Below, piece after piece: positions 27,126 through 44,714 of a DNA stretch of 64,000 nt (the first letter of the stretch is position 1; each line of letters begins with the position of its first letter). This DNA is from Pseudomonadota bacterium. GTDB taxonomy: Bacteria; Verrucomicrobiota; Verrucomicrobiia; Limisphaerales; SXTU01. Below the pieces are notes generated by a model. It did not search any database. It worked only from the letters and a program-made list of their open reading frames with translations, and had not been told where the DNA came from. The DNA is taken from assembly GCA_009924135.1 (NCBI GenBank), contig RFSE01000010.1:63-64062 (forward strand). Reading direction: 5' to 3'. The position numbers and the translations under genes are program-made.

Positions 27126-30100
27126 ATGCAGCTTTTCAAATTGATCGTGCTCGCCATTTTGCTGGCCGGCAGCCTTTGTTTCGCGCCCATTTTGACCCGC
27201 GCCGCTGATTCCAAGGCCAAGGCTGGGGATGCTGCCGACAAGGAAGCCCAAGCCGAAGCCGCCGCTCGGGCGAAGGCCGAAGCCGCCGCGAAGGCCGAGC
27301 GGGAACGCAAGGCCAAGGCCGAAGCCGAAGCGACCCAGCGCGCCAAGATCGAGGCCGACCGCAAGGCGCAAGCCCAGGCCAAAGCCCAGCAGGAAGCCGC
27401 TGCGAAAGCCAAGTCCGACGACGAGAAAAAAGCCAAGGCCGAGGCCGAAGCGAAGCGCCTCGCCGACCAGAAGGCCGCGAAGGTCGCTGAAGAGAACAAA
27501 CGCGCCGCTGAACTTGCCGCCCGCAAAGCCGATCCCGCCGGCTGGGCCGCCCGTGCCAAGTCCGATGCCCAGGCGGCTGCCGCCGATGCCGCCCGTGCCG
27601 CCTCTGAAGCGCAGGCCGCGCAGGCCGCGGAGAAGGCTGCGGCTGCCGCCACGCAGGCTGCTCATGCCGCTGAAACCAAGGCCGTAAACGATTTGGACAA
27701 GGCCAAGTCTGCTGCCAGCAGTGCCGCCAGTGCGTTGAAGTCCGCCCAGTCGGCCACGCAGTCCGCCACCGCCGCGAAGGCCCGCACCGAGGCTGACACC
27801 AAGGCGCATGCCGAGGCCGAGGCGAAGAAGCAGCTCCAGGCCGCCGATGCCATTGCGAAGGCCAAAGCCGCTGCCGAGGCGAAAGCCAAAGCCGCCACGG
27901 ACGCCGCTGCCGCCGCCCAAGCCGAAGCCAACCGCCTCGCGCAGGCAGAAGCCAGCGCCAAGACCGAGGCTCAAGCCGCCGACGCCAAAGCCACCCAGGC
28001 CGCCGCTGATGCCAAGACCGGTGGCGCTTCCATCGCTGAACTGGAGACCGCTCTCAACACGGCCAACAAAACCGCTTCCGATGCCGTTCGCGCCAAGGAG
28101 GCCTACGCCGCCGCCGTGAAGAACAAGCCGGAGCGCGAAGCGCAGGCGGCTCTTCAGGCTGCGACGGTTTACGCCGAAGCCGCTTCGCGCAACGCCCGGA
28201 CCGCGCAGGAGAAACTGGATGCCGCCAAGGCCGCCGCGAAGGCCAAGGTGGATGCTTCCAAGGCTGCCCACGCCGCTGCCGAAGCCGCGCACAAGGCGGT
28301 CAGTGAAGCCAGCAGCAAGGCTGCTGCTGCCAAGCACGCTGCTGACTCTGCCGCCAAGGCGGTTGTGGAAGCCCGGGCCGCTGCGGATGCCGAGACCGCG
28401 AAAGCGGCCAAAGCTGCCGAACAACTTAATCAGGCCAAGGCCGCCGGCGCGGCCGCGTTGAAGGCTAAAGCCGACGCGCTCGCTGCTGCGCAAGCCGACG
28501 AGCAGGCCAAATCCCGCGCCGCCGAACAGGCTGCCAGCGCGGTGAAGACTGCGGAAGCTGCCGCGCAGAAGGCCAAGGCGGATCGCACCGCCGCCGAGCA
28601 GGCGGCTGCTGCTGCTGCCGCAGCCGCGAAGAGCAAGGCCGAAATTGCCCAGCTTGCCCGGAGCGAGGCGAACAAGAAAGCCTCGGTCGAAGCCGATGCG
28701 GTTCACGCCGCGCAGGTTGCCGCCGATGCGGCCAAGGCCAAGGCTGCCGCCGAAGCCAAAGCCAAGGCGGAACAGGAAGCCAAGGCCAAGGCCGAAGCGG
28801 AGAAAAAGATGAAGGCCGAGGCGGAAGCGAAAGCCGAAGCGGATCGCAAAGCCAAGCTGGAAGCCGATCGTCGCATGAAAGCGGAAGCCGAGGCGAAGGC
28901 GGAAGCCGACCGCAAGGCTAAGGCCGCTCAGGAAGCGAAGGCCAAGGCCGATGCCGAGGCTGCCAAGCGCGCCAAGGCCATGGAGGAAGCCGCCCAGGCC
29001 AAAGCCGCAGCGGATGCCAAGCTGAAGGCCGAACAGGAAGCCAAGGCCAAGTTGGAAGCAGAAAAGAAGGCCAAGCTCGAAGCCGAGAAGAAGGCGGAAG
29101 CCGAACGTCAGGCCAAGATCGACGCGGAGAAGAAAGCCGCTGCCGAAGCCAAGGCCAAGATGGAGGCCGAGAAACAGGCCAAGGTGGAAGCCGAGAAACA
29201 GGCGAAGCTCGCCGCCGAAAAGCAGGCGGCTGAAATGAAGGCCAAGATCGAGGCCGACCGGAAGGCCAAGCTCGAAGCTGAGAAGCAAGCCAAGCTCGCT
29301 GCCGAGAAGCAGGCTGCCGAGATGAAGGCCAAGCAGGAAGCGGATGCGAAAGCCGCTGCTGAAGCCGCCAAGAAAGCCGCTGCCGAAGCCAAGGCCAAGA
29401 TCGAGGCTGACAAGAAGGCCAAGGCTGAAGCCGAGCGCCAGGCCAAGATGACCAAGCCGCCGGTCACGACTCCTTCCACCAAGCCCGTTCCCGTTGTCCC
29501 GCCGGTCACGGTTAAGCCGGCTGCCGATTCCGAGGCGAAGGCGAAGCTTGAAGCTGAGCGCAAGGCCCGCATTGAAGCCGAGAAAAAGGCTGAAGCGGAC
29601 GCCAAGGCCAAAGCCGAAGCCGAGAAGGCGGCGAAGGCCGAAGCGGCTCGCAAGGCCAAGCTCGAAGCTGAGCAGAAGGCCAAGGCTGAGACCGAGCGCA
29701 AAGCGGCCGAAGCGAAGGCCAAGATGGAGTTGGAGAAGCAGGCGGAAGCCGCCCGGCTCGCCAAGCTCGAAGCCGACAAGAAAGCTGCCGCCGAGGCCAA
29801 GCTGAAGATGGAGGCTGATAAGAAGGCCAAGGCTGAAGCCGATCGCCTGGCCAAGCTCGAAGCCGACAAGAAGGCCAAGGCCGAAGCCGACCAGAAGGCC
29901 GCTGAAGCCAAAGCCAAGGCCGAGCTGGCGAAGAAGGTGGAGGCCGAACGGCTCGCGAAGATTGAAGCTGACAAGAAGGCCGCAGCAGACGCGAAGGCCA
30001 AACTTGAAGCCGAAACCAAGATCAAGCTCGAAGCCCAGCGCAAAGCTGAGTTGGAGGCGAAGGCCAAGATGGAAGCCGATCGCAAGGCGCGTGAAGCGGC

Positions 30101-31049
30101 TGAAGCGCAGGCCAAGGCCGAATTGAAGATCAAACAGGAAGCCGAGAAGAAGGCCGCCCTGGAAATGGAAGCCAAGCGCAAGGCCGCCGAGGCCGAAGCC
30201 GAAGCTCGCGTCAGGGTGGTGGCCGAGCAGGCGCGCCAGGCCAAGGCTGCGGCTGAGATGCGGGCTGAGACAGTGCGCAAGACGCAGATGGAAGCTGCCA
30301 AAAAGGCCGCCGACGAAGAGAAGGCCAGGCAGGAACTACAGCGCAAGGCACAGGCTGAATCCGAGCGGCTTGCGAAGCTGAAGATGGAAGAGGACCGCAA
30401 GGCCCGCGAAGCTCAGGAAATGGCGCTTCGCAAGTCACAGGAAGCTCAAATTGCAGCCGCCCAGGCCGAAGCCAAAGCGAAGCTCGAAGCCGACAAAAAG
30501 GCCAAGATCGAGGCTGAGGCTGCGCTCAAGGCCTCAATGAAGGCCCAAGAAGAGGCCGCCCGCAAGCAGCGCGAAGACGAAGCGAACCGTATCAAGATGG
30601 AAGCCGCTGCGAAGGTCAAAGCCGAGGCGGATGCCAAGCGTCTCCAGGCCGAAGCAGCAGCCAAGGTGAAGGCTGACGCTGAAGCTGCCAAGAAGGCGGA
30701 GGCCAAGGCCAAGGCGGATGCCGAAGCCGCCAAGAAGGCGGAAGCCAAGAAGCAGGCTGAAATTGAAGCCCGTCTCAAACAGATGGAGCTCAAACGTCAG
30801 GAGGACGAGCGCAAAGCTGCTACCAGCAAGCCCACGCCTCCTCCGGCTGCCACCGGCACGCAGACCACCACCAAAGCGCCTCCGGCCGGCACTACGCCGG
30901 TTCCGTCCGTCGTGAAGCCCGAGGTCAAGAAGGGCCCGGTCAAGCCCAAGGAACAGCGCCTCAAGGAACTGCTCCAGTTGTATCTCACCGACAAGATCTC
31001 CCCGCGCCAGTATCATCAGGAGCGCGCCAAGATCCTGGCCGAGCCCTGA
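27126..31049 (+). CDS. Giant (1307 aa) Ala/Lys/Glu-rich coiled-coil envelope protein with N-terminal signal/anchor, two Pro/Thr linkers and a SHOCT-like C-terminus
   Basis: MQLFKLIVLAILLAGSLCFAPILTRA, then more than 1100 aa built almost only from A, K, E, Q, D and R (AEAKAKAEAEKKAKLEAE...). Linkers MTKPPVTTPSTKPVPVVPPVTVKP and SKPTPPPAATGTQTTTKAPPAGTTPVPSVVKP. Ends QRLKELLQLYLTDKISPRQYHQERAKILAEP. Confidence 0.85.
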   Translation: MQLFKLIVLAILLAGSLCFAPILTRAADSKAKAGDAADKEAQAEAAARAKAEAAAKAERERKAKAEAEATQRAKIEADRKAQAQAKAQQEAAAKAKSDDEKKAKAEAEAKRLADQKAAKVAEENKRAAELAARKADPAGWAARAKSDAQAAAADAARAASEAQAAQAAEKAAAAATQAAHAAETKAVNDLDKAKSAASSAASALKSAQSATQSATAAKARTEADTKAHAEAEAKKQLQAADAIAKAKAAAEAKAKAATDAAAAAQAEANRLAQAEASAKTEAQAADAKATQAAADAKTGGASIAELETALNTANKTASDAVRAKEAYAAAVKNKPEREAQAALQAATVYAEAASRNARTAQEKLDAAKAAAKAKVDASKAAHAAAEAAHKAVSEASSKAAAAKHAADSAAKAVVEARAAADAETAKAAKAAEQLNQAKAAGAAALKAKADALAAAQADEQAKSRAAEQAASAVKTAEAAAQKAKADRTAAEQAAAAAAAAAKSKAEIAQLARSEANKKASVEADAVHAAQVAADAAKAKAAAEAKAKAEQEAKAKAEAEKKMKAEAEAKAEADRKAKLEADRRMKAEAEAKAEADRKAKAAQEAKAKADAEAAKRAKAMEEAAQAKAAADAKLKAEQEAKAKLEAEKKAKLEAEKKAEAERQAKIDAEKKAAAEAKAKMEAEKQAKVEAEKQAKLAAEKQAAEMKAKIEADRKAKLEAEKQAKLAAEKQAAEMKAKQEADAKAAAEAAKKAAAEAKAKIEADKKAKAEAERQAKMTKPPVTTPSTKPVPVVPPVTVKPAADSEAKAKLEAERKARIEAEKKAEADAKAKAEAEKAAKAEAARKAKLEAEQKAKAETERKAAEAKAKMELEKQAEAARLAKLEADKKAAAEAKLKMEADKKAKAEADRLAKLEADKKAKAEADQKAAEAKAKAELAKKVEAERLAKIEADKKAAADAKAKLEAETKIKLEAQRKAELEAKAKMEADRKAREAAEAQAKAELKIKQEAEKKAALEMEAKRKAAEAEAEARVRVVAEQARQAKAAAEMRAETVRKTQMEAAKKAADEEKARQELQRKAQAESERLAKLKMEEDRKAREAQEMALRKSQEAQIAAAQAEAKAKLEADKKAKIEAEAALKASMKAQEEAARKQREDEANRIKMEAAAKVKAEADAKRLQAEAAAKVKADAEAAKKAEAKAKADAEAAKKAEAKKQAEIEARLKQMELKRQEDERKAATSKPTPPPAATGTQTTTKAPPAGTTPVPSVVKPEVKKGPVKPKEQRLKELLQLYLTDKISPRQYHQERAKILAEP

Positions 31050-32857: not shown

Positions 32858-34522
32858 TCAGTCCACCGGCAGGGTGATGTGTACTTCCAGTCCATGGGGA
32901 TCGCGGTTCTTGGCGGTGACGGTGCCGCCGCACCCTTCGATGCACGTCTTGACGATGGCCAACCCGAGGCCTGCACCACCGGTGTCCCGCGCGCGGTCCG
33001 GTTCGAGCCGGTAAAAGGCATCGAAGATCCGGTCGATATGCTGCGGTGGCACGCCGGGACCGAGATCGGAGATCGTAATGACGGCCGCGCTGCCTTGCCG
33101 CCGGGCGGCGATGGTGATGGGGCCGGCACTGCCCGCGTAACGGAGGGCGTTGCGGATCAGATTCGCAATCGCGCGCTGCAACAGCTCCGGATTCGCGTAA
33201 CACACAAGCTCGGCGGGCACCTGTAGGATGACCCCGCCGTCGTCGGCGGCCTCCCGTTTGGTGGCGGCTTCGGCGATCGCCTTTACATTGATCTGCTTGC
33301 GTTTGACGTTGGCGGGCTTGAGCGAGGCCTTCGAGACGGTGAGCAGTTCGTTGACGAGGTCGCTCATGTGCTGGACTTCTTCCCGGACGTCGTCGAGGCA
33401 GGGCTTTTGCTGGTCGGAAGAATGCTGTTCGAGGATGCCGACCGCCATCTGGAGGCGCGCCAGCGGGGAGCAAAGTTCGTGGGCGAGGTCGCCCGTGGAG
33501 CGTTTCTGGCCGTTGACAAAACCTTCAAGCCGGGCGCTCATGCGGTTGATCGACATGCCAAGCTGGCCCAGTTCGTCCGTGCGCGTCTCGTCCACCCGCA
33601 CGTCAAACTGGCCGTCGGCGATCTGCCGGGTGGCCCGCGTCATCTGTCCGATGCTGCGTGTGACACCGGTGATCAGTGGGAACCAGAACAGGCCGGACAA
33701 GCCGACAATGCCGGCGCAACTCAGCAGCCACGGCCGGTAGTCGAAGAAGAATCCGCCGGCGCTGAAGGTCGCGGAGCGGGCCAGCAAGGTTCCGGGGGTG
33801 TGCGGGCCATCGTTCAGGCGCAAGCCGATCATCAATCCAACCCAGTAGGCGCGTGGGTTTTCGGACTGCACGAGAAAGCGATGATGAATCGGTGCTGAAC
33901 CGGGCGGCTCGAATTGCTCTTTGCCTCCCGGACCGGGCCTGCCAGGGGCATTCATGTTCCCAGTCTGAATCTGCTCGCCATCCATGGGCGGGCGGCGATT
34001 GCCGTCCGGTCCACCTTGGGGCGGCGGGCCTTTGCGACCGTCCGGGGGACCGCCGTGCAGGTCGGAGGGGCGCGGAGGCAGGCCGAGGTGGCCAGTGCCC
34101 AGTTCGTTTTGCGGGCCGCGGGCACCGCGCTCACCAAAGCCGCCGGGCGGCGGACCGCGACGGACCTGCCATTCATCGCGCCGGGGCGGGCGGGGAAGCT
34201 GGCTGCGGAGCCTCGTTGGCAACTCCATTTCCTCGCCCGCGATGATGGCCTGATCATTATCGAGGAGCAGGAACATCACGCCATGGGCCTGGCCGTGGCG
34301 GGCGAGGACCTCGCTCCATTCGTTCCGGGGTTTGGTTTCCAGCTCGGCCATGATGGCGCGGGCGGTGGCCTCGACCCGTCCGCCGACATGTCCCGCCAGA
34401 AAGGAGTCGAAGCCGCTGCGGGTCGCGTAGCGCAAACCGACCCAGGCGATGGCGATCAGCACGATCAGATTCAGGGAGAACCAGATCAGGATTTTCGCCG
34501 TAAGTGAGGAGCTTGCTTTCAT
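32858..34522 (-). CDS. Sensor histidine kinase (two TM helices, HAMP, HisKA, HATPase_c) with Pro/Gly/Arg-rich periplasmic region
   Basis: TM1 ILIWFSLNLIVLIAIAWVGL and TM2 WLLSCAGIVGLSGLFWFPLI. H-box AHELCSPLARL, N-box NLIRNALRYA, G-boxes SDLGPGV and GGAGLGLAIV. Periplasmic segment RGPPPGGFGERGARGPQ...GGPPDGRKGPPPQGGPDGNRRPP. Confidence 0.9.
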   Translation of the reverse strand: MKASSSLTAKILIWFSLNLIVLIAIAWVGLRYATRSGFDSFLAGHVGGRVEATARAIMAELETKPRNEWSEVLARHGQAHGVMFLLLDNDQAIIAGEEMELPTRLRSQLPRPPRRDEWQVRRGPPPGGFGERGARGPQNELGTGHLGLPPRPSDLHGGPPDGRKGPPPQGGPDGNRRPPMDGEQIQTGNMNAPGRPGPGGKEQFEPPGSAPIHHRFLVQSENPRAYWVGLMIGLRLNDGPHTPGTLLARSATFSAGGFFFDYRPWLLSCAGIVGLSGLFWFPLITGVTRSIGQMTRATRQIADGQFDVRVDETRTDELGQLGMSINRMSARLEGFVNGQKRSTGDLAHELCSPLARLQMAVGILEQHSSDQQKPCLDDVREEVQHMSDLVNELLTVSKASLKPANVKRKQINVKAIAEAATKREAADDGGVILQVPAELVCYANPELLQRAIANLIRNALRYAGSAGPITIAARRQGSAAVITISDLGPGVPPQHIDRIFDAFYRLEPDRARDTGGAGLGLAIVKTCIEGCGGTVTAKNRDPHGLEVHITLPVD

Positions 34523-35259
34523 GGGGCTTCTGGCCGGATCAGCATGTAACCGGCCGAGCGCACGGTGCGGATGAAGCGCGGTTCCCGGGGATCGTCGCCC
34601 AACTTCTTGCGCAGCCCGGAAATGTGTACATCGATCGAACGGTCGAACACCTCGTAGTTGCGGTTGCGGATTTCATCGAGCAACTGCTCGCGGGATTTTA
34701 CGCGGCCCTGTGCGCGGGTCAGCGAGAGCAGGAGGTCGAATTCGACGGGGGTGAGGATCAACGCCTCTTTCCCCAGCGTGGCGGTGCGGGCGCTGACATT
34801 GATCTGGAGGTCGCCAGCACTGACGATTTCATCGGCTTCGGAGGCGGCTCCGGTTCCAGACTGGGTGGTCCGGCGGGTGACGGCCCGCAGCCGCGCGAGC
34901 AGTTCGCGCGTGGAAAAGGTTTTGGGCAGGTAATCATCCGCGCCGAGTTCGAGGCCGACGATGCGGTCCGCCTCCTCACCGCGCGCCGTCAGCATGAGCA
35001 CCGGCACCGCCGAGCGGGTGCGGATGCGTCTGAGCACCTCAAACCCATCGCAGCCCGGCAGCATGAGGTCCAGCACGACGGCCTGCCAGGATTCGGCGGT
35101 GGCGCGTTCCGCGCCCTCCGGACCGGTGTGCACGGCCTGGACGCTGTAGCCCAGCGGTTCGAGGTAGTCCTTGATCAGCCGGCAGAGCTTGCGGTCGTCA
35201 TCGATGATGAGGATCCGGGTGGCGGGCGTGGCAGTGGGGGGCTTGTCGGGTGCGGCCAT
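34519..35259 (-). CDS. OmpR-family response regulator (receiver + winged helix)
   Basis: RILIIDDD, VVLDLMLPGCDG (phospho-Asp), LTPVEFDLLLSL...IRTVRSAGYML. The stop overlaps the kinase start by 4 bp. Start is ambiguous: in-frame ATGs at 35259, 35280, 35322, 35340 and 35394. Confidence 0.9.
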   Translation of the reverse strand: MAAPDKPPTATPATRILIIDDDRKLCRLIKDYLEPLGYSVQAVHTGPEGAERATAESWQAVVLDLMLPGCDGFEVLRRIRTRSAVPVLMLTARGEEADRIVGLELGADDYLPKTFSTRELLARLRAVTRRTTQSGTGAASEADEIVSAGDLQINVSARTATLGKEALILTPVEFDLLLSLTRAQGRVKSREQLLDEIRNRNYEVFDRSIDVHISGLRKKLGDDPREPRFIRTVRSAGYMLIRPEAP

Positions 35260-35394
35260 AGAAGCGTTGGCCACGGGCATAGCAGAGGCCGGTGAGTTTT
35301 GAAACTCGCGCGTTCCCGGCATGGATGAATTGGTCGGCATGGCTTTATCCGATGGGGGCAGGATTTTCGCTTTGGCTGTGCCGGGCGAGCACAT

Positions 35395-35483
35395 TTACAC
35401 CCGCTTAACAAATCTGACGTTGGTGCTCATAATCCCCTTACAGGGCTACGCCATCTTGGCCCCAGCAAAACAACGCTGCTGCC
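35395..35483. promoter_or_regulatory. Divergent control region between the response-regulator gene and the YHYH operon
   Basis: Only non-coding DNA lies between two divergent transcription units. I could not identify a convincing operator or -35/-10 elements by eye. Confidence 0.3.
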
Positions 35484-38400
35484 ATGAAACCCAACTGCGC
35501 TTCCTCCTCTTCCGGCTCTGCGGATCAACTTCACCCCGATTGGAAACCGCGTCGCACCGTTTTCCGCCCGGAGCTGGTCCGGTCTTCGAGTCCCGGCTCC
35601 GCCACTGTTTCTGCCCGGCCGGGCAGCCTGCTGTTCTGGTGGCGGCGGTTGGCCCCGCTGGCCGCGCTGATCGCGCTGCTGCTGCCGGGCGTTCTACAGG
35701 GCGCGAGCGTAACCGTCTCGGATGCCGTCGTTAACCTCGCGAGCAGCGCAGGCGGTGCCAAAAACTACACGTTCACGGATGCCACTTCCGGACAGAGTGT
35801 CACCGTGGCGCTCACACTGACGTCATTCTCTTCGGACCCGGCGGCCGTGCTCTCGTTGCTGGATGGAAACTCCCGGGTAGGCGTCGGAAACCCCAACGTC
35901 GGCGGTGACGGCAATCTCATCGTGTATGGCGAGGGCGTGAACTTCGCCGCTTCGCTGGTGAGCGCCTCTGCTGGAGTGAACGCCGGATCGGTCACCTTCC
36001 GCGTGCAGGGCTTGGGGCTGCGGGCCGTGAGCGGCACGGCACCCCTTTACTGGCAGTCCTCGGCCACGGCCTCGAACGCCTTCACGCTCACGGGCGAGAC
36101 CGTGAACACGCTCGATGCCGCCGGGGCTTCGCTGAACGGCAGCAGCTATGCCGGCCAGCTTGGGTTTTCCGTCAACGACGGTTCCGACGCGCAACTGAGC
36201 GATGCCGGGACGATTGCCGGGCTGGGGCTGGTGTTGAATGTAAGTTTCACGACGAACGGCGTGGTCACGGCCCCGCTCATCACCTCGTGGTTCACCGCTT
36301 ATTCGGGCAAATACGCCCGCATCTACACCAGTGACACGACGAAAAACGCCGGCACGGCGGCCACGGTCTGGACCAACGGCACCACCAGCCAGGCGCTGCC
36401 GGTCTATTCCGGCGTGCAGGAAATCTCCTCCTCGATCAACTGGGTCTATATCCGCAGCTCGGGACTGGGCTCGCACACGATGGGCCCTTGGTATCTGGAT
36501 GCGCAACATCAGCAGCTCTTTCCCAACTTTCCGACCAACCAGAAGGTCTATTACCGGCTGCCCCGCACGCCGAGCGTGCCCGGCACCAAGACTGCCAATA
36601 ACGGCGGGGCCATCGGTTACTTTGTGGATGGCGTGGCGATGTTCAACAGTTGGGACGCCTACTATTGGAACGGCTCGGCCGAAGTGCAGTCCATGGGTAA
36701 TGGGACTGGTTATTGGAACCGTGACGCTTACGTGAACGAAGGCCAGTCCTTCGACGGGAACAACGCTCATCAGGCCGGCGGCCAGCATCACTATCATGCG
36801 AACCCGCCGGCGTTGCGCTTCCTGCTGGGCGATCACGTGGATTTTAATTCCACGACCAAGGTTTACTCGGAATCCACGGCGGCTCCCACGAAGCACTCGC
36901 CCATTCTTGGCTGGGTGGCCGATGGCTATCCGATCTACGGACCTTACGGCTATGCGAACGCCGCCGATGCCAACAGTGGCGTGCGCCGGATGATCTCGGG
37001 TTATGTGCTGCGCAACGGACAGAGCAATACCGTGAATCTGGCATCCACCGGGCGCACGACATTGCCGCAGTGGGCGGTGCGCCTCTACCAAGTCACGGCG
37101 TCTCAGGCCGGTCCCACGGTGAGTCCCCAGTATCCGCTGGGCCGTTACATGGAGGACAACGACCACCTTGGCGATCTTGGTTACACGGCGGGCGTGGATT
37201 ACGACCTCGACGAATACAACGGCCGGTTCTGCGTGACCCCGGAGTTTCCCGGCGGGACATACGCTTACTTCGTTGCAATCAAGTCCGATGGTACGCCCGC
37301 GTTTCCCTACAACATTGGCCGCGGCTATTACGGCAGTCCGACTGGCGGCGCGGTGACGACGTTGAACGAAACCGTCACGACCAATTTCGTCGGGGGCACG
37401 AACATGCCCATACAGCTCGGCGCTCCCGCGAAATCTCCCTCGACCGTCACGCTCATGTGGAGTGCGGTGGACGGTGGAAACTACGATGTCGAATCGCGCA
37501 ACACTTTGGGCACGGGTGCCTGGCAGACCAAGGTGTCCGGCGTGTCCGTCACGGGGATCGTCGCGCAGGCGGCGGACACGTCGGCCGGCAGCGCTGAATA
37601 CTACCGTATCAAGCTCGCCTCGATAGCTGCTTACGACCCCGTCACGGGCACCGTCGCCGGTGGTGGTGGTGGCGGCGGCGGTGGCGGTGGCCAGCCCACC
37701 CCGCCGAGCGTGGGCACTGTGACGCCCAACACGGGTACGGCGAGCGCGTCCGTGACCGTGACGATAAACCTGAATGGCGGGACTAACCTGCCGCCCGCCA
37801 ACGCCACGCCGACCTCGGTCACGCTTGGTACCGCCACCGGCACGGCGGTTTCCTACGATGGCTCAGCCGTGACGGCGACGTTCACGCTGCCGGTGACGAC
37901 CGGTTTGCAGAACATCGTGATTACATTCCCGGCTCCGCCAGCAGGCGGGAACGCGCTGGTCGTCACGGGCACGAATGTCTTTACGGTCAACGTCGCTGGT
38001 GGTGGCGGTGGCCAGCCAACGCCGCCGAGCGTGGGCACCGTGACACCCAACTCAGGCACGGCGAGTGCCTCAGTGACGGTGACGGTGAGCCTGCTAGGCG
38101 GGACCAACCTCCCGCCCGCCAATGCTACACCGACTTCGGTTACGCTTGGGTCTGCCACCGGTACGGCGGTTTCCTACGATGGTTCGGCAGTAACGGCGAC
38201 GTTCACTCTGCCGGTGACGACCGGTTTGCAGAACATCGTGATCTCCTTCCCAGCTCCGCCCGCAGGCGGGAACGCGCTGGTCATTACTGGCACGAATGTC
38301 TTCACGGTTAACGCTGCTGGTGGCGGGGGAACCTCCACCACCACGGCTCCCAATGGCTCGGCTACGCGGGGCACGACGGTGACCGTCACCATCACATTGC

Positions 38401-38645
38401 CCACGAACCCGCCGTTGCCGCCGCTGCTGGGCCAGAACAACCAGACGTTGCTGCCGCAGACCGTGACGCTCGCGGGCATCACCGGCACGAATGTTTCGCG
38501 CCCCGCCCAGGGCACTGTTATTGCGACGTTTGTGATTCCAGCCAATGCCCCCACCGGCGCGCAGAATGTCGTCGTGACCTTTCCCCCGCCTCAGGGAATG
38601 CAGGCGGCCACCTACACCCTGACGGGCGGCGTCACGTTGCACTAG
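35484..38645 (+). CDS. Large secreted YHYH-domain protein with FN3-like module and three IPT/Ig-like C-terminal repeats
   Basis: Signal helix RRLAPLAALIALLLPGVLQGAS. YHYH-domain blocks GGQHHYHANP, GWVADGYPIYGPYGY, LDEYNGRFCVTPEFPGGTYAYFV...FPYNIGRGYYG. Module TLMWSAVDGGNYDVESRNTLGTGAWQ...EYYRIKL. Poly-Gly, then 107-aa repeats. Confidence 0.85.
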   Translation: MKPNCASSSSGSADQLHPDWKPRRTVFRPELVRSSSPGSATVSARPGSLLFWWRRLAPLAALIALLLPGVLQGASVTVSDAVVNLASSAGGAKNYTFTDATSGQSVTVALTLTSFSSDPAAVLSLLDGNSRVGVGNPNVGGDGNLIVYGEGVNFAASLVSASAGVNAGSVTFRVQGLGLRAVSGTAPLYWQSSATASNAFTLTGETVNTLDAAGASLNGSSYAGQLGFSVNDGSDAQLSDAGTIAGLGLVLNVSFTTNGVVTAPLITSWFTAYSGKYARIYTSDTTKNAGTAATVWTNGTTSQALPVYSGVQEISSSINWVYIRSSGLGSHTMGPWYLDAQHQQLFPNFPTNQKVYYRLPRTPSVPGTKTANNGGAIGYFVDGVAMFNSWDAYYWNGSAEVQSMGNGTGYWNRDAYVNEGQSFDGNNAHQAGGQHHYHANPPALRFLLGDHVDFNSTTKVYSESTAAPTKHSPILGWVADGYPIYGPYGYANAADANSGVRRMISGYVLRNGQSNTVNLASTGRTTLPQWAVRLYQVTASQAGPTVSPQYPLGRYMEDNDHLGDLGYTAGVDYDLDEYNGRFCVTPEFPGGTYAYFVAIKSDGTPAFPYNIGRGYYGSPTGGAVTTLNETVTTNFVGGTNMPIQLGAPAKSPSTVTLMWSAVDGGNYDVESRNTLGTGAWQTKVSGVSVTGIVAQAADTSAGSAEYYRIKLASIAAYDPVTGTVAGGGGGGGGGGGQPTPPSVGTVTPNTGTASASVTVTINLNGGTNLPPANATPTSVTLGTATGTAVSYDGSAVTATFTLPVTTGLQNIVITFPAPPAGGNALVVTGTNVFTVNVAGGGGGQPTPPSVGTVTPNSGTASASVTVTVSLLGGTNLPPANATPTSVTLGSATGTAVSYDGSAVTATFTLPVTTGLQNIVISFPAPPAGGNALVITGTNVFTVNAAGGGGTSTTTAPNGSATRGTTVTVTITLPTNPPLPPLLGQNNQTLLPQTVTLAGITGTNVSRPAQGTVIATFVIPANAPTGAQNVVVTFPPPQGMQAATYTLTGGVTLH
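37659..37691 (+). repeat. (GGN)11 simple-sequence tract encoding poly-glycine
   Basis: ggt ggt ggt ggt ggc ggc ggc ggt ggc ggt ggc, in frame within the YHYH protein. Confidence 0.9.
37689..38330 (+). repeat. Tandem 321-bp (107-aa) direct repeat x2 inside the YHYH gene
   Basis: Units start GGCCAGCC(C/A)AC(C/G)CCGCCGAGCGTGGGCAC at 37689 and 38010. They encode GQPTPPSVGTVTPN(T/S)GTASASVTVT...NVFTVN, nearly identical. A third diverged unit follows. Confidence 0.85.
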
Positions 38646-38666
38646 TTCGCCCCAAGTCGATTCGCC

Positions 38667-38861
38667 ATGAAAGCCCCGGCCCTCACCACTGATCAGCGCA
38701 TCGCCCGCGTCTGGGCGCTGTTCACCGTGCTCGCCTTGTTGCTCTGGCTGAGGAATCAGGTGCGTGGTGCGGAGTCCGAAGTGACGGTGGCGATCGAACC
38801 GCGCTTCCGGGGCGAGCCGCTGGTGTTTGACCAGTTGACCTGCACCAACGCGGCCCGGTAG
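38667..38861 (+). pseudogene. 5' fragment (signal peptide + first strands of an MbnP-like domain), ended by an in-frame TAG
   Basis: MKAPALTTDQRIARVWALFTVLALLLWL... then VTVAIEPRFRGEPLVFDQLTCTNAAR*. TAG at 38859-38861 is in the same frame as, and directly abuts, the 38862 ORF. Confidence 0.6.
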
Positions 38862-40532
38862 GTGCTCGCCATCACGCGGCTCGACCTGTTGCTCTCGGGC
38901 CTGGCCGTGCGGCGTACGGACGGCACCTGGTTGGAGAAGAATGACTGGTTTGCCTATCTCAGCGGTCGCGCGGGCCGCACGAACTTCGTGCTGCGTGGCC
39001 TGCCACCGGGTGATTACGACCGGCTGCAGTTCAACATCGGCGTGCCGCCGGATCTGAACCATGCGGCCCCTGCGAAGTTGGAAGAGCGGCATCCGCTGAA
39101 CCCGATGGTGAACGGCATGCACTGGAACTGGCAGGGCGGGTATGTGTTCCTCGCGCTGGAAGGAAGGTTCACTCCGCTCGCGTCGGCAACGGCTGGTTCG
39201 CAAAATCAGTCGGCCAGCGGCTTCTCGTGGCATCTTGCCACGGACCGGCTCTTGATGAATGTGGAGGTGCCCGTGACGCTGGCCTTGTCCGGCGAACGGG
39301 CGGCTGACCGGCGGACCACGCTGCGGGTCGCGCTGGAGCTGGCGCAGGTGTTTGACGGCATAATACTGGATGACGAAACCAGTTCCACCCATTCACGACC
39401 GGAGGACCGGTTGGCGGACAAGTTGCGACAGCGGGTGGAACAGGCGTTTTTACCGGGGCAGCGCGCAGACACGGCCGGCCCGGTGGAAAAGCTGGTGACA
39501 CCGTTAACGGCTCAATCCGGCCCAGTTGTCGGTACGCCTTATCGCTTCACCATGTCCGCCGCCTTTCCCAAGCCCGCGCTGCCGCGTGACAATCCACTCA
39601 CGATGGAAGGCGTCGCACTGGGCCGCCGCCTGTTCAACGACCCGTTGCTCTCACGCGGCGGGAAGCAGTCCTGTGCGTCGTGTCATCAGATGCAGGCCGG
39701 CACGGTGGACGCGGGCAAGGCCTTCAGCGTTGGCGTGGACGGCCAGCCCGGCAAACGCAATGCCATGCCGCTCTACAACCTCGCGTGGAAGTCCGAGTTC
39801 TTCTGGGATGGGCGCGCCAAATCACTGCGGCAGCAGGCGCTCATGCCCATTCAGGATGAATTGGAGATGCATGAAACGCTGGCGAACGTGGTCGGGAAAC
39901 TGAAAGCGGCGGGCGGGGCGGAGAGTTACCACGAGGTGTTTGCGTGGGCGTTTGGTTCGTCTGACATTACCGCTGAACGGGTGGGACTGGCCTTGGAGCA
40001 GTTTCTGCTGACGCTCACTTCCCACGACGCCAAGTTCGACCGGGTAATGCGGCGGGAAGCGCTGTTCACGGCGGAGGAACAACGGGGTTTCGAGCTGTTC
40101 CACACGGAACACGATCCCCGGCGGGGGTTGTTTGGCGCGGATTGTTTTCACTGCCATGGCGGACCGCTGTTTCAGAACGTTGCGTTCGCCAACAATGGCC
40201 TGGACCACGAGCCGCGCGACCTTGGCCGTTACCTCGCCACGGGGCGCGAGGGCGACCGGGGCAAGTTCGCCGTGCCATCACTGCGCAACGTGGAGCTGAC
40301 TGCGCCTTACATGCACGACGGGCGGTTTGCCACGTTGGAAGAGGCCGTGTTCCATTACGTTCGCGGCGTGCGGCACAGCCCGACGCTGGACCCGAACCTG
40401 GCGAAGCACCCACCGGGCGGGGTACGCCTCCCGCCCGAGGATGTGCGGGCGCTGGTCGCATTCCTGCGCACCCTCACCGAAGAGTCGCTTCGCCCAGGCG
40501 CGCGGAACGTAGCGCTTGCGCCATCGCCATGA
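38862..40532 (+). CDS. MbnP-like domain fused to dihaem cytochrome c peroxidase (MbnH/MauG-like); lacks its own signal peptide
   Basis: MbnP-type blocks LAITRLDLLLSGLAVRRTDGTW, GDYDRLQFNIGVPPDLNH, HPLNPMVNGMHWNWQGGYVFLALEGRF. CCP blocks GRRLFNDPLLSRGGKQSCASCH, FFWDGRA, CFHCHGGPLF, PSLRNVELTAPYMHDGRF. Confidence 0.8.
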   Translation: MLAITRLDLLLSGLAVRRTDGTWLEKNDWFAYLSGRAGRTNFVLRGLPPGDYDRLQFNIGVPPDLNHAAPAKLEERHPLNPMVNGMHWNWQGGYVFLALEGRFTPLASATAGSQNQSASGFSWHLATDRLLMNVEVPVTLALSGERAADRRTTLRVALELAQVFDGIILDDETSSTHSRPEDRLADKLRQRVEQAFLPGQRADTAGPVEKLVTPLTAQSGPVVGTPYRFTMSAAFPKPALPRDNPLTMEGVALGRRLFNDPLLSRGGKQSCASCHQMQAGTVDAGKAFSVGVDGQPGKRNAMPLYNLAWKSEFFWDGRAKSLRQQALMPIQDELEMHETLANVVGKLKAAGGAESYHEVFAWAFGSSDITAERVGLALEQFLLTLTSHDAKFDRVMRREALFTAEEQRGFELFHTEHDPRRGLFGADCFHCHGGPLFQNVAFANNGLDHEPRDLGRYLATGREGDRGKFAVPSLRNVELTAPYMHDGRFATLEEAVFHYVRGVRHSPTLDPNLAKHPPGGVRLPPEDVRALVAFLRTLTEESLRPGARNVALAPSP

Positions 40533-40703
40533 GGCCATTTTTTCACTTTGCTCGTGTGAGCAAACGGCGGACGGATCGGTTTAATTCGTATGCACGATCC
40601 GTCCGCTGTGTCTCTTTTCGTGCCGGGGCGACGCGGTCTGGCCGGAGATTTCTTTGCTGCGTTGTTCCCGGTGGTCCGTGTTAGATTGCCCGCATTCTTC
40701 ATC

Positions 40704-41717
40704 ATGATGTTAAGCCCTTGCCCTTCACGATTTGCTCTCCCGATGGCCGGACTTGCGTTGTTCGCGGGTGTGCTGGTCGCCAGTGCCCAGCCCCGGCCGG
40801 ATGAGCCGCGTGGTCCTGGTGGTCGCAATGGCGAGAAGATGGGCAAGCAATACGCCGCCCCGGCGGGGGATGGCCAGAGTCCCGGCGCGAACCAGGTGAG
40901 CATCGTCGTCGAGGGGGGCTTTCGCGTGATCCGCGCCAACGGGCTGCCGGATCATGCGCCGGGTCAGTTTCCCAATCGCGGCAACCCGAATGTGATTGCG
41001 GCGCAGAAGTACAACTACCGCATCCCGCTTCAGCCCAAGGAAAACCCGCAGTTCACCCCGGTGCGGATGCACCCCTTTGGGGTTGCCCTCAACGGCGTCG
41101 TCTTCGATCCCGGGGCGGCGGAGTGGTGGCAGATGGACCCGCGCTCGGGCTGGACCCTCGACCCGATCAGCGGCTCGCAGAAGCTGGGCATCGACCGGCA
41201 CAATGCGCATGTGCAGCCCAGCGGGGCATATCATTACCACGCGTTGCCGACGGGGTTGATCGAGCGGCTCACGGGCGGCAAGGAAAAGATCGCCCAAGTT
41301 GGCTGGGCGGCGGATGGCTTTCCCATCTACGGGCCGTGGGGCTACAGCGAGGCCAAGAGCACGAACAGTGCGTTGAAGCGGTTGAAGTCCAGCTACCGCC
41401 TGCGCGAAGGCACGCGCGCCAGCGGACCCGGCGGGAAGTTCGATGGCAGTTACGTTGAGGATTTCCAGTATGTCAACAGAGCCGGCGATCTGGATGAGGC
41501 AAATGGGCGATTTGGTGCCACCCCGGAGTTTCCCCAGGGCACTTACTACTACGTTCTGACCGATGATTTTCCCTTCATCCCGCGTCAATACAAAGGCACG
41601 CCGGACAGCAGCTTTTTCCGACATGGCCCGCCCCCCATGCGATTCGGAGCTGGTGATGTGGGCTTCCGGGGTGGTCCGGGATCGAAAGGACCGCCGCCCG
41701 GAAAAGATGGCAGGTAA
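40704..41717 (+). CDS. Secreted YHYH-domain protein
   Basis: Signal peptide MMLSPCPSRFALPMAGLALFAGVLVASAQ. GAYHYHALP, GWAADGFPIYGPWGY, LDEANGRFGATPEFPQGTYYYVLTDDFPFIPRQYKG. Gly/Pro/Arg-rich N- and C-terminal tails. Confidence 0.85.
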   Translation: MMLSPCPSRFALPMAGLALFAGVLVASAQPRPDEPRGPGGRNGEKMGKQYAAPAGDGQSPGANQVSIVVEGGFRVIRANGLPDHAPGQFPNRGNPNVIAAQKYNYRIPLQPKENPQFTPVRMHPFGVALNGVVFDPGAAEWWQMDPRSGWTLDPISGSQKLGIDRHNAHVQPSGAYHYHALPTGLIERLTGGKEKIAQVGWAADGFPIYGPWGYSEAKSTNSALKRLKSSYRLREGTRASGPGGKFDGSYVEDFQYVNRAGDLDEANGRFGATPEFPQGTYYYVLTDDFPFIPRQYKGTPDSSFFRHGPPPMRFGAGDVGFRGGPGSKGPPPGKDGR

Positions 41718-41735: not shown

Positions 41736-43409
41736 GTGCTTGTGAGTGCGACGCCCTCCGGGTCAACCCCAGAACAGCCGGATCAACCCCGCCCCGACAG
41801 CGAGGACAGCGAAACTTTACCCCGTGAGGCCGCGCATCCCAGCGGCTCCAGCGGCTCGGCCGCGATGAAGTTCCGCCCCCCGGTGCGCGATCTCTCCGGC
41901 TCCCAGCTGGGCGAATACCGGCTCGTCCGCAAGATTGCCGAAGGCGGCATGGGCGAGGTCTATGAAGGGGTCCAGCTCAAGCTCGACCGGCGGGTCGCCG
42001 TAAAGCTCCTGGCCGAGCAGCTCGCGCGCGAACCTGAGTTCCTCGCCCGGTTTGAGCGCGAGGCCAAGTCCGCTGCGGCGCTCAATCACCCGAATGTGTT
42101 GCAGGTCTATGACTTCGGCTGCGCGAACGGGCAGAATTATTTCGTGATGGAACTGGTGGACGGGCTGGATCTCTCCCTGTACGTCAAGGAACATGGCAAG
42201 CTGGCCGTTCCGGTGGCGCTGGAATATTTCGAGCAGGCGGTTCACGCCCTCCAGTTCGCGGCCCGGCACGCCATCATCCACCGCGACGTGAAGCCCGCCA
42301 ACTTGATGCTCACGGGCGACGGCCGGGTGAAGGTCGCCGACCTCGGTCTCGCCAAAAAATTGACCGACGATTCCGATGTGACCATGACCGGTGTGGGCAT
42401 GGGATCGCCGCATTTTCTCGCGCCCGAGCAGGCGGACGACGCCGCGCATGTGGATCATCGCGCGGACATCTATTCGCTCGGGGTCACGCTGCTGTTTTTG
42501 CTCACGGGCCGGCGGCCGTTTGACGGGGCTTCGAATTTCTCCGTTGTCCTGGCCCACGCGAACAAACCGCTGCCCACGGGCATTGAACTGGGCACGCCGT
42601 TGCCCGATGAAATCGAGCGTTTCATCAAGCGCATGACGGCCAAGACGCCCGAGGCCCGGTACCAAAGCTACGAGGAACTGCTCGCCGACTTGCAGCGCGT
42701 GAAGGCGGGGCAGGGCCCCCGGCAGGACTGGGGGCAGGTCCTGAAGAATTCAAAGACGGTATGGATCACCGGCGCGGGTATTATGGCTTTGGTTGCGCTT
42801 GTGTTCGCCGCCCCGTGGATAGGGTCCGACCGGAAACCAACCGCCAGCGAATCCGAGCGACAAACGATCCAGCCCTCGCCGCCGGGTGATCGTCCGGAAC
42901 GTGCTGAGCCCCGCCCGCCATCCCAAGGTGATCGGCCGGGCTTCGGGGACCCGAGGGAAAAGGGCAAGGGCGGGGCGGGTAAGATGGATTTGGGCGGTGG
43001 TTTGCGTCCCCCCTGGCCACGGCGGCCACCTCCCGATCGGTATCCGCTGCGCGATGGTCCAATTCCGCAGATGCTCGCCGAGGCGGACGCCTATGCTGCC
43101 GCCAACAAGGAGGAGTATGTGGAAATTATCCACCGTTACGGACAGATCGAAGAAAAAGCTACCGGCACCCCGTGGCAAAAGGAGGTCGAGCGCCGTTTTG
43201 ACCAGGCTCAGGACCGGTTGCAGGCGGCCTCCAGTGCCTATATTAAACAAACGGAAGCCAAGATGGAACCATTGTTGCAAGCCGGCAAATATGAAGAGGC
43301 CTACCAGCTCTGGCGGGATTTTCCCTTGCGCATCCAAACTCATGAAACCGATCAGGAGGTTTTGCAACTGCTGCGCCGCCGTCTGCCGCCGGACTTTGTG
43401 CCCCGATGA
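41736..43409 (+). CDS. Hanks-type Ser/Thr protein kinase with one TM helix and an extracytoplasmic Pro/Gly/Arg-rich + helical domain
   Basis: G-loop EGGMGEVYEG, VAVKLL, HRDVKPANLML, DLGLAK, SPHFLAPEQ. TM helix VWITGAGIMALVALVFAAPWI. GTG 41736 or ATG 41865 as start. Confidence 0.9.
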   Translation: MLVSATPSGSTPEQPDQPRPDSEDSETLPREAAHPSGSSGSAAMKFRPPVRDLSGSQLGEYRLVRKIAEGGMGEVYEGVQLKLDRRVAVKLLAEQLAREPEFLARFEREAKSAAALNHPNVLQVYDFGCANGQNYFVMELVDGLDLSLYVKEHGKLAVPVALEYFEQAVHALQFAARHAIIHRDVKPANLMLTGDGRVKVADLGLAKKLTDDSDVTMTGVGMGSPHFLAPEQADDAAHVDHRADIYSLGVTLLFLLTGRRPFDGASNFSVVLAHANKPLPTGIELGTPLPDEIERFIKRMTAKTPEARYQSYEELLADLQRVKAGQGPRQDWGQVLKNSKTVWITGAGIMALVALVFAAPWIGSDRKPTASESERQTIQPSPPGDRPERAEPRPPSQGDRPGFGDPREKGKGGAGKMDLGGGLRPPWPRRPPPDRYPLRDGPIPQMLAEADAYAAANKEEYVEIIHRYGQIEEKATGTPWQKEVERRFDQAQDRLQAASSAYIKQTEAKMEPLLQAGKYEEAYQLWRDFPLRIQTHETDQEVLQLLRRRLPPDFVPR

Positions 43410-44689
43410 AACTTAAGTTCCTCCTCACCACCGCCCTGTATCTGAGTGGCTGGCTTTCCCTTTCCGCTGCGGAGCTGGACTGGTCACGCTTCCGTGGCGC
43501 GAATGGTTCCGGCATTGCGGTGGGCGCGCAGCCGCCCACGACGTGGAGCGACACGCAGAATCTGAAATGGAAGACCGAGTTGCCAGGAGCGGGCACCTCC
43601 AGCCCCATCGTGGTCGGCGAGCGCGTGTTTCTGACGTGCTGGACCGGTACTGGCGCGGTGACGCGTCAGCTCGTGTGCGTCAGCCGGGCTTCCGGGAAGA
43701 TTCTCTGGGCCAAGTCCGTGGCGGGCGAAGCCTCTCCCGACCGTTATGACGGCTTCCTGCAGGAGCACGGCTACGCGAGCCACACGCCGGTCAGCGACGG
43801 TGAAAAAGTTTTCGTTTATTTCGGTCGCGGTGGTGCGGCAGCTTTCGATCTGGAGGGCAATCAACTGTGGCAGGTGAAGTTGGGGAATGATGCGAACGGC
43901 AAAAACTGGGGTTCCGCCGCCAGTCCCATACTCTACAAGAACACCGTCATCATCACTGCGTCTGAAGAGGCCCATGCCGTGGTCGCGCTCGACAAGGCCA
44001 CGGGCAAGGAGGTCTGGAAGTCTCCCGGTTCGGCACTGGAATACGTCTTCAACACACCGGTGCTGGCTGGCAGCGACACACAACCAGAACTGGTGCTGGT
44101 GCTGCCCGATGAGCTGTGGGCGCTAAATCCCGACAACGGCAAGCTGCGTTGGTATGCCGCGACCGGCCTGCCGGGAAACATTGCTCCGAGCGCCGTCGTG
44201 GGGGATGGCGTTGTGTATGCGTTTGGCGGTTTCCCGCAGCTCGGCGCGGTCGCGTATCGCACCGGAGGCAAAGGCGATGTCGGTCAGACGCATCAACTCT
44301 GGATCACCCGCAACAGCACCTACGTTCCTACGCCAGTGCTGCACGAGGGCCGCCTCTACGTCGTGACCGATCAGGGTTTCGCGCTCTGCCTGGATGCGAA
44401 GACGGGCGAGGAAGTTTACAAGGAGCGGCTTCCCGGAGCGAGCGCCACGGGGCGCGGTGGCAAGCCCTTTTACGCCTCGGCAATATTGGCGGATGGAAAC
44501 TGCTACGCGGTCAGTCGGCGCAATGGCACGTTTGTCATCGCAGCGAAACCGCAGTTCCAGCTCGTCGCGCAAAACACGTTTGCCAGCGACACTACGCAGT
44601 TCAACGCCACTCCGGCGGTGAGCGGCAAACAGCTTTTCCTCCGCTCCGACAAGTATCTCTATTGCGTCGAGGCTGGAGCAAAACCTTGA
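43406..44689 (+). CDS. PQQ-like (BamB-like) beta-propeller repeat protein, secreted
   Basis: Signal peptide MKLKFLLTTALYLSGWLSLSAAE. Blade repeats (..SGKILWAK.., ..GNQLWQV.., ..TGKEVWKS.., ..GKLRWYA.., ..TGEEVYKE..). ATGA overlap with the kinase stop. Confidence 0.85.
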   Translation: MKLKFLLTTALYLSGWLSLSAAELDWSRFRGANGSGIAVGAQPPTTWSDTQNLKWKTELPGAGTSSPIVVGERVFLTCWTGTGAVTRQLVCVSRASGKILWAKSVAGEASPDRYDGFLQEHGYASHTPVSDGEKVFVYFGRGGAAAFDLEGNQLWQVKLGNDANGKNWGSAASPILYKNTVIITASEEAHAVVALDKATGKEVWKSPGSALEYVFNTPVLAGSDTQPELVLVLPDELWALNPDNGKLRWYAATGLPGNIAPSAVVGDGVVYAFGGFPQLGAVAYRTGGKGDVGQTHQLWITRNSTYVPTPVLHEGRLYVVTDQGFALCLDAKTGEEVYKERLPGASATGRGGKPFYASAILADGNCYAVSRRNGTFVIAAKPQFQLVAQNTFASDTTQFNATPAVSGKQLFLRSDKYLYCVEAGAKP

Positions 44690-44714
44690 TCCCAAACATC
44701 AACCCTCAGTGTCT

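Follow-up and report, generated by a model that had tools for sequence, protein, structure and literature searches.

The 64-kb stretch of DNA analysed here (hereafter the window) carries, at positions 32858-41717 and in the downstream same-strand genes up to 45182, a two-component system transcribed divergently from genes for secreted proteins, among which lies a single-chain fusion of an MbnP domain with a dihaem enzyme of the MauG/MbnH type. MbnP/MbnH pairs are widespread outside methanobactin operons, and the locus is a variant within the MbnPH system rather than a system of a new kind. Comparison with related genome loci (designated below by L-numbers, related proteins by P-numbers) supports one regulated module in which proteins with a YHYH domain would be the partners of MbnP-MbnH, as suggested by gene adjacency, shared strand, a common operator and domain fusions. 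The wider proposal is that the locus represents a Verrucomicrobia-wide extracytoplasmic cassette under its own OmpR-family two-component system, in which the single-chain MbnP-MbnH would supply copper to secreted partners; we give this proposal about even weight. The genes most directly concerned are the following:

32858-34522, minus strand: sensor histidine kinase of 554 residues (Pfam HAMP, HisKA and HATPase_c)
34519-35394, minus strand (34519-35340 in the version with the conserved start): OmpR-family response regulator (Pfam Response_reg and Trans_reg_C)
35484-38645, plus strand: large secreted YHYH protein of 1053 residues (Pfam YHYH, E 2e-38)
38667-40532, plus strand: MbnP and MauG/MbnH-type dihaem fusion frame of 621 codons, interrupted by a TAG codon (Pfam MbnP, 99.1 bits; CCP_MauG, 171 bits)
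40704-41717, plus strand (337 residues; 324 residues if started at 40743, as in database gene calls): small secreted YHYH protein (Pfam YHYH, E 2e-69)

Coordinates and Pfam assignments agree with an earlier, sequence-only reading of this locus in that the kinase and regulator open reading frames (ORFs) overlap by 4 bp and both diverge from the plus-strand genes, and in that the gaps among the three plus-strand genes measure 21 nt and 171 nt. The 337-residue YHYH protein placed there downstream of the fusion is likewise recovered (Pfam YHYH, 234 bits). The 1053-residue product, called a surface protein, does possess a YHYH domain, but its surface location is unproven, as it displays a signal-like segment and Ig-like repeats and no recognised anchor. 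In the fusion of MbnP to a dihaem peroxidase both domains are indeed present, but the frame is not uninterrupted, an in-frame TAG at codon 65 having been passed over.

The N-terminal half of the fusion matches the Pfam MbnP family (PF20243, E 4e-28, residues 37-238, a segment that spans the TAG position), for which the gathering threshold is 27 bits. An AlphaFold2 (AF2) model of this domain, built from the intact sister allele P0242 (~98% identical to the window sequence), has a mean predicted local distance difference test (pLDDT) value of 92.1. Foldseek analysis of the model against the PDB reports six chains of 7L6G (E 1.6e-8 to 1e-7, probability 1.0, template modelling score 0.52-0.59), and no PDB match besides 7L6G below E 0.05, the next one being at E 0.06. 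By profile score and predicted fold the domain is a true but divergent MbnP, as the sequence-only reading had proposed. The C-terminal half is assigned the CCP_MauG family (E 2.5e-50) and can be aligned to MbnH 6E1C from end to end (E 1.3e-39), and its core aligns with the canonical peroxidase 1IQC (E 1.6e-40). The motifs of the two halves are located as follows:

39120-39131, plus strand: HWNW (residues 152-155), the WxW motif of MbnP, aligned with AWNW (MAWNW) of PDB 7L6G
39672-39686, plus strand: CASCH (residues 336-340), first haem-binding motif; C336, C339 and H340 invariant in an alignment with 17 homologues
40143-40157, plus strand: CFHCH (residues 493-497), second haem-binding motif; C493, C496 and H497 invariant in the same alignment
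40356-40358, plus strand: Tyr564, predicted distal ligand of the six-coordinate haem (a MauG-type hallmark), aligned with position 294 (Tyr) of the MauG chain

Tyr564 is invariant among homologues and aligns, at the sequence level, also with a Tyr of MbnH 6E1C; residue 294 of MauG is the Tyr ligand of the haem. The inter-haem Trp, W380 in the segment FFWDGRA, is likewise invariant, with the Trp of NeCCP and of MbnH at the aligned position. His-Tyr as opposed to His-Met haem ligation separates MauG-type enzymes from canonical peroxidases (PMC11892367). Judged by these alignments and by a score below the NCBIfam cutoff for MbnH, the C-terminal half is a dihaem enzyme of the MauG/MbnH type, not an MbnH equivalog.

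In the characterised MbnP, Trp174 of the WxW motif is converted to kynurenine by MbnH, and the copper site is made up of kynurenine, His, Met and water (PMC11951088). Both Trp residues of the motif, W153 and W155, are invariant across an alignment of 45 fusions, as are His189 and His242, and Met197 is not. Sequence and profile alignments of the fusion to 7L6G extend just around the WxW motif, short of the His/Met ligands. Given two invariant His residues, a variable Met197 and the lack of any conserved Cys, a kynurenine/Cu site, if formed, would likely be His-rich and similar to that of MopE/CorA.

The fusion has homologues in 3607 database proteins at E 1e-20 or better, and nearly all of the best 120 of these 3607 matches contain both Pfam domains, under the source names "MbnP family protein" or "cytochrome c peroxidase". 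A scan of species-representative genomes yields at least 595 loci that carry the fusion; the best 80 of them, all fused and almost all labelled Verrucomicrobiota, constitute the neighbourhood set used below. With more than 3600 proteins and at least 595 loci, the single MbnP-MbnH polypeptide, which the sequence-only reading had called notable, is thus no rarity but the standard form in Verrucomicrobiota. The titles of some metagenome-assembled genome records (L004, L010, L015, L018, L026, L029, L060 and L076) name Akkermansia muciniphila, Bifidobacterium, Acidoferrum, Sulfopaludibacter or Pseudomonadales despite typical Verrucomicrobial cassettes; as these labels look unreliable, a spread of the fusion outside Verrucomicrobiota is not readable from them.

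All ORFs of the 80 loci were translated and then searched with the window proteins, and the linkage to YHYH was counted in the 69 species loci that have at least 2.5 kb of upstream sequence. A YHYH ORF lies upstream on the same strand in 41 of the 69 and is directly adjacent, that is less than 400 nt from the fusion, in 34. Over the 1.30 Mb of flanks of the 80 orthologous loci, every one of the 50 YHYH ORFs is on the strand of the fusion (46 upstream, 4 downstream), an arrangement far beyond chance. The upstream partner in most related loci is a YHYH protein of ~590 residues that matches the core of the 1053-residue protein of the window (61-68% identity). The reverse check is consistent, since all four ~590-residue YHYH orthologues for which a long contig is available are followed by the fusion, with gaps of 8-53 nt in three cases and one intervening gene in the fourth. 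The co-localisation of YHYH and MbnP/CCP genes that had been anticipated for other genomes therefore holds in most related loci and is reciprocal for the ~590-residue orthogroup. As for the two flanking YHYH proteins, both proposed earlier as module partners, the large one is retained on account of its conserved adjacency, but the small one is a lineage-specific addition, its gene being found downstream of the fusion in close relatives only (L001, L004, L008 and L019).

Recurrent neighbours were identified by clustering crude gene calls and by Pfam. Directly upstream of the fusion, YHYH is itself fused to multicopper oxidase domains in L022 (4-5109), L068 (16-3378 and 3432-8669) and L069 (4444-9897). 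Directly downstream of the fusion in ~13 loci devoid of YHYH, galactose-oxidase-like giants are encoded (2100-2900 residues, typically ~2400) that combine Glyoxal_oxid_N, Kelch, galactose-oxidase E-set, PKD, RoxA/CCP-like cytochrome and PA14 domains and contain beta-propellers, as in L027 (11590-18699). These two copper-oxidase associations are the best indirect suggestion of a copper role. Apart from the two-component, EF-hand and sulfatase genes treated below, the remaining recurrent neighbours are housekeeping genes or generic genes of the PVC (Planctomycetes-Verrucomicrobia-Chlamydiae) superphylum, such as those with DUF1501 or DUF1553. The literature searched holds nothing that links YHYH to MbnP/MbnH or that describes the fusion, the primary MbnP paper lying outside the coverage of that search.

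The region between the regulator gene and the large YHYH gene contains two candidate control elements:

35394-35409, plus strand: direct repeat TTTACACCCGCTTAAC, of the form TT[TA]AC-N6-TT[TA]AC, candidate response-regulator site found by cross-species alignment
35405-35433, plus strand: sigma-70-like promoter TTAACA-17-CATAAT for the plus-strand operon (10/12 matches; one site against 0.1 expected in shuffles)

When the divergent region is aligned with those of L001 and L004, a conserved block GCGAGCA-ATTTACA-CC-GCTTAACAAATCTG emerges that holds TTTAC-N6-TTAAC. The pattern TT[TA]AC-N6-TT[TA]AC has a single match in the window. Each of the 10 loci that have an orthologous response regulator (E 1e-83 or better) carries it in the same orientation beside the regulator gene, and every locus with the other regulator type lacks it there. 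A scan of 1.34 Mb returns 25 matches against ~1.5 expected by our base-composition estimate, 18 of which are just upstream of response regulator, YHYH, fusion or EF-hand genes; loci without a two-component system in the flank (L012, L068, L074 from Chthoniobacter flavus, L076 and L079) are represented among these 18. The -35 element of the operon promoter, the only promoter predicted in the region, coincides with the second half-site of the direct repeat, and its sequence is conserved in L001. A generic finder of direct or inverted repeats run on the intergenic region returned just a chance 8-mer. A candidate direct-repeat operator shared with orthologous loci, for which the sequence-only reading had proposed to look in the divergent region, is thus found, and this strong comparative evidence points to the YHYH, fusion and EF-hand genes as one regulon of this regulator, which is predicted to bind the repeat. 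The regulator itself probably starts at 35340 (M19) or 35259 (M46), where ATGs are conserved in the L001/L004 alignment, rather than at 35394. OmpR/kinase pairs of two different types occur in ~26 of the 80 loci. In two loci with the other regulator type, the minus strand carries triple TTAAC repeats with 11-bp spacing at a distance from the cassette (L011, 4121-4147; L015, 3973-3999).

The co-directional gene set, believed earlier to stop at 41717, in fact continues with three genes, the last of which encodes an EF-hand protein:

41736-43409, plus strand: membrane Ser/Thr protein kinase (Pkinase, E 9e-45), 18 nt after the small YHYH gene
43406-44689, plus strand: secreted PQQ_2/BamB-like beta-propeller (Pfam), with a 4-bp overlap with the Ser/Thr kinase gene
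44709-45182, plus strand: secreted EF-hand protein (Pfam EF-hand) with two canonical loops, DANGDGVIDAQE and DKNGDGKLTEDE

If the cassette works in copper supply, the following scheme can be envisaged. The fusion protein would be exported and loaded with haem, after which its dihaem domain would reach a bis-Fe(IV) state with H2O2. It would then oxidise the Trp of HWxW, in its own MbnP domain or in that of a partner subunit, to kynurenine, and a Cu site would result, probably formed by kynurenine and the conserved His residues (His189 and His242) rather than by His and Met. The copper protein so matured would take up periplasmic copper and hand it to co-encoded secreted proteins, which would be the YHYH proteins in the window and, elsewhere, the YHYH-multicopper oxidase fusions or the galactose-oxidase-like giants. 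The Cpx/Bae-like kinase would turn the whole set on via the direct repeat. The MbnP fold, the HWxW motif, the MauG-type Tyr, the YHYH-multicopper oxidase fusions and the galactose-oxidase-like neighbours leave such a copper function finely balanced. More tentatively, and on the doubtful side of our estimates, YHYH may be an unrecognised extracytoplasmic copper-dependent or copper-handling domain, loaded or matured via the self-modifying MbnP-MbnH, which together with the two-component system would make up a phylum-wide copper supply for secreted oxidases. If this is true, YHYH domains found in phages, giant viruses and diatoms would gain a first function. The present comparison ties YHYH to MbnP-MbnH by a co-oriented gene pair, a shared regulator box and multicopper oxidase fusions, and represents a first functional lead for YHYH. 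Since substrate (MbnP) and enzyme (MbnH) form one chain across a whole phylum, the kynurenine-forming reaction would also be easier to study. Of note, a cultured carrier, Chthoniobacter flavus Ellin428 (L074), possesses all three elements, YHYH gene, fusion and box, so that the hypothesis is directly testable.

The closest known system is MbnP/MbnH of Methylosinus trichosporium OB3b (7L6G and 6E1C), with which the locus shares the MbnP fold, the WxW motif, a Tyr-ligand MauG-type dihaem partner and the partnership itself. The differences are several. In the window and its relatives the two proteins form one polypeptide, in the order MbnP then MbnH. Both halves of the fusion fall below the NCBIfam equivalog cutoffs, with 43.2 versus 140 bits for MbnP (TIGR04052, aligning residues 107-171 only) and 189.1 versus 362.85 bits for MbnH (TIGR04039). 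The 7L6G entry is named "four-Cys motif protein", whereas no Cys occupies an invariant or near-invariant column of the MbnP domain of the fusions. The Met candidate of the fusion is not conserved, and invariant His residues are found in its place. Lastly, there is no methanobactin operon or TonB-dependent transporter nearby; the locus has instead a YHYH neighbour and OmpR-family control.

Other systems are more distant. MopE/CorA is a copper protein, secreted or at the surface, whose site consists of kynurenine and two His, and its gene stands beside that of a dihaem peroxidase, MCA2590/CorB (PMC3621798, PMC11951088). The His-rich conservation of the fusion would fit such a site, but the MopE/CorA fold differs from that of MbnP (PMC11951088), the protein has no sequence relation to the window proteins, and it is unfused and without a YHYH partner. 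The pair of MauG and pre-methylamine dehydrogenase resembles the fusion in that a His-Tyr dihaem enzyme oxidises Trp of a protein substrate, and its Tyr294 is conserved in the fusion; however, the similarity is weaker (E ~1e-28), the product is tryptophan tryptophylquinone, and no mau genes are present here. Regarding the YHYH family (PF14240), for which the gathering threshold is 25 bits, both window proteins score well above it (132.5 bits for the large one) and keep the His-rich motif.

The two-component system can be compared with CpxRA and BaeSR, which likewise consist of an OmpR regulator and a HAMP kinase encoded by overlapping genes divergent from a target. The CpxR box reads GTAAA-N5-GTAAA, and the complement of the direct pentamer repeat reads GTAAA-N6-GT(A/T)AA. 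The likeness has its bounds, as the scores remain below the cutoffs, the box spacing is one base longer, and the sensor domain is unrelated and partly of low complexity. The kinase is laid out as a first transmembrane helix, a periplasmic region of ~235 residues, a second transmembrane helix, HAMP, HisKA and HATPase_c. All its NCBIfam scores are below cutoff, whether for CpxA (186 versus 486 bits), cztS_silS_copS (161.6 versus 292.55 bits), the Cu/Ag sensor (129 versus 423 bits) or BaeS. Its periplasmic part begins with a conserved N-terminal segment and proceeds with a variable Pro/Gly-rich low-complexity stretch, and an alignment of 11 orthologues reveals no conserved His, Cys or Met in it, by which a metal-sensing signature is ruled out. 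Metal sensing by this kinase, part of the system that the sequence-only reading had called a dedicated envelope-sensing one, is thus not supported, the nearest models being those of the envelope-stress kinases CpxA and BaeS.

Several observations weigh against the copper-supply scheme as a whole. Among them are the missed equivalog cutoffs, the variable Met197 and the missing four-Cys motif of the fusion, together with the Cpx/Bae-like affinity of the kinase and the lack of metal ligands in its sensor. YHYH is absent from 28 of the 69 fusion loci. The neighbourhoods contain no recurrent copper transporter or exporter, CopA/CusF-type gene or TonB-dependent receptor. EF-hand proteins, which point to calcium, are encoded in 19 of the 80 loci, 18 times in the direction of the cassette and once, in L063, on the opposite strand. 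YHYH is fused to a sulfatase in L053 (4664-9814), which points to glycans, and a sulfatase gene directly follows the fusion in L017, L052, L058, L067, L071 and L079. Fusions of YHYH to cadherin-like domains pull away from a copper role too. PHROGs places the YHYH domain in phage baseplate and virion proteins, and in the sole published functional view YHYH is a predicted Zn hydrolase carried by phage tails (PMC7824862). Finally, the fusion is broken in the lineage of the window, as described below.

A good part of these points would fit a Cpx/Bae-like regulon for envelope or surface remodelling with no copper in it, where YHYH would be a Zn hydrolase or glycan binder, the EF-hand proteins calcium binders, and the dihaem protein a factor in dealing with peroxide or in another oxidation. 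The kinase models and the ligand-free sensor, the resemblance of the reverse-complemented box to that of CpxR, the predicted hydrolase activity and the phage occurrence of YHYH, its links to sulfatases and cadherin-like domains, and the EF-hand genes all speak for it. We nevertheless regard it as unlikely, because the Tyr ligand marks the dihaem half as MauG-type, a class of poor peroxidases (PMC11892367), because the fold of the N-terminal domain matches the copper protein MbnP alone, and because copper oxidases are associated with the cassette in two independent ways.

It is also conceivable, at a distinctly low probability in our view, that the MauG-type domain, much as MauG does with pre-methylamine dehydrogenase, acts in trans and not on its own MbnP domain only, and installs an oxidised or cross-linked residue in YHYH or in the multicopper and galactose-oxidase-like neighbours, the MbnP domain being then a docking or copper-donor module. 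MauG-type enzymes do oxidise separate protein substrates at long range (PMC11951088). The tight and reciprocal adjacency of YHYH to the fusion (gaps of 8-80 nt), the constancy of the fusion while its neighbours vary between YHYH, YHYH-multicopper oxidase and galactose-oxidase-like proteins, and the invariant His, Tyr and Trp residues of YHYH would all suit such a role. However, a substrate-type MbnP domain with an invariant HWxW is built into the fusion in all 80 loci, YHYH is missing from the 28 loci mentioned above, and no target residue in YHYH is singled out.

In the window, the fusion gene bears the following lesion:

38859-38861, plus strand: in-frame TAG at codon 65 (CAG to TAG), directly followed by a GTG that gene callers use as start

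Column 65 is Gln in at least 90% of homologues (alignment with 17 homologues), and the TAG is hence explained by a single C-to-T change. Public gene calls divide the frame into P0241 (64 residues) and P0001 (556 residues, from the GTG after the TAG). An intact 621-residue allele, P0242 (...AARQVLAI...), comes from a fourth assembly, of another sample, and belongs to the same 90% cluster as the window protein. Three contigs of separate samples or runs (ERZ28574192, Logan SRR3568955 and ERZ28575138) carry the TAG allele, and apart from a variable tandem repeat their DNA does not differ from the window. An assembly error is ruled out by this presence in three assemblies, and so is an old, maintained allele, as the three assemblies represent one clone. 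The DNA being identical throughout one clonal lineage, the mutation can be very recent. The fusion gene of this lineage is probably a recent pseudogene, to judge from the alleles compared, and the module has most likely been inactivated recently, the remaining cassette genes being intact. Since its central gene is a pseudogene, the window itself is of lower value for the study of the system. That the amber codon is harmless, through suppression, readthrough or a restart at the adjacent GTG giving a working 556-residue protein, would agree with the recovery of the TAG allele in three assemblies of different samples, with the 556 codons after the TAG being free of further lesions and with the GTG immediately following, but it is highly improbable, given that these assemblies are one clone in which the mutation can be very recent, that a single C-to-T change removed a Gln shared by at least 90% of homologues, that the restart product would be without signal peptide and first MbnP-domain strands and would thus not be exported for c-type haem attachment, which requires an exported protein, and that amber decoding is not known from this phylum.

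Proteins with YHYH (PF14240) are found in bacteria as well as in phages, giant viruses and diatoms. The two YHYH proteins of the window contain these features:

36552-37283, plus strand: YHYH domain of the large YHYH protein, in its conserved core (N-subdomain and YHYH domain; 36276-37703), with the HHYH motif at 36786-36800
37680-38323, plus strand: two tandem 321-nt units, encoding a 107-residue Ig-like repeat, in the large YHYH gene (Tandem Repeats Finder)
41016-41597, plus strand: YHYH domain of the small YHYH protein, which also comprises a signal peptide and a Pro/Gly-rich tail, with the YHYH motif at 41229-41243

The large protein begins with a long leader, which includes a hydrophobic segment (35649-35702), and continues with an N-terminal region specific to the lineage, the conserved core and the Ig-like C-terminal repeats. 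An ENA scaffold, L090 (2011-2657), has one extra 321-nt unit, for a protein of 1160 residues instead of the 1053 of the window. This copy-number difference within one clone is either real length variation or a repeat collapsed in one assembly. The invariant residues of YHYH include His (H84, H169, H177 and H179), Tyr and Trp, plus several Asp/Glu. The AF2 model of the small protein has a pLDDT of 76.5, with a core above 90. The PDB contains no solved relative of YHYH, either by sequence search to E 10 or by Foldseek of the AF2 model (best E 0.41), and in a viral structure library the model matches just other unannotated predicted YHYH proteins from cyanophages and giant viruses. The notion that all YHYH genes accompany MbnP was ruled out by P0180 and P0163, two more distant small YHYH proteins encoded elsewhere, after PAS-HisKA kinases. 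In L084 (4787-8933) and L085 (4016-8894), stand-alone small YHYH genes directly follow large PAS-HisKA hybrid kinases, away from MbnP.

Turning to the genes downstream of the small YHYH gene, the Ser/Thr kinase gene is syntenic in L001, L004 and L008 and the PQQ-like propeller gene in close relatives; the pair (41736-44689) follows the cassette in close relatives only. In L001 (13167-17476), the Ser/Thr kinase gene is preceded by two inserted genes, one for an FHA protein and one for a protein of the metallo-beta-lactamase fold, and a Lactamase_B gene also comes after the fusion in L089. The EF-hand gene is usually found right after the fusion or between the response regulator gene and the cassette, and it is also present in L086 and L087. 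EF-hand relatives of other loci exhibit PPMHRHRPP motifs. Similar low-complexity stretches rich in Pro, Gly, Arg and Asp (PPPGG..., GPGG... and QPGRDG repeats) recur in three secreted or periplasmic products of the locus, namely in the periplasmic part of the kinase (33600-34100), the tail of the small YHYH protein (41600-41717) and the EF-hand protein (44780-44900 and 45050-45170).

Further downstream, the plus-strand segment 45486-52236 encodes a multihaem cytochrome c of 276 residues, and a 753-residue protein without family assignment, the genes of which keep their synteny with the cassette in L001, L002, L004 and L008. The same segment also has genes for a small cytochrome c, another multihaem cytochrome, a 4Fe-4S protein and a membrane protein in which an NrfD-like part is joined to a cyclic-nucleotide-binding domain. 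Upstream of the kinase gene, a plus-strand ORF of 1307 residues (27126-31049) returns no Pfam match and consists mostly of Lys/Glu/Ala-rich repeats (periods of 42-87 nt), which explain why AT skew is extreme (0.53) in the 28-30 kb bin.

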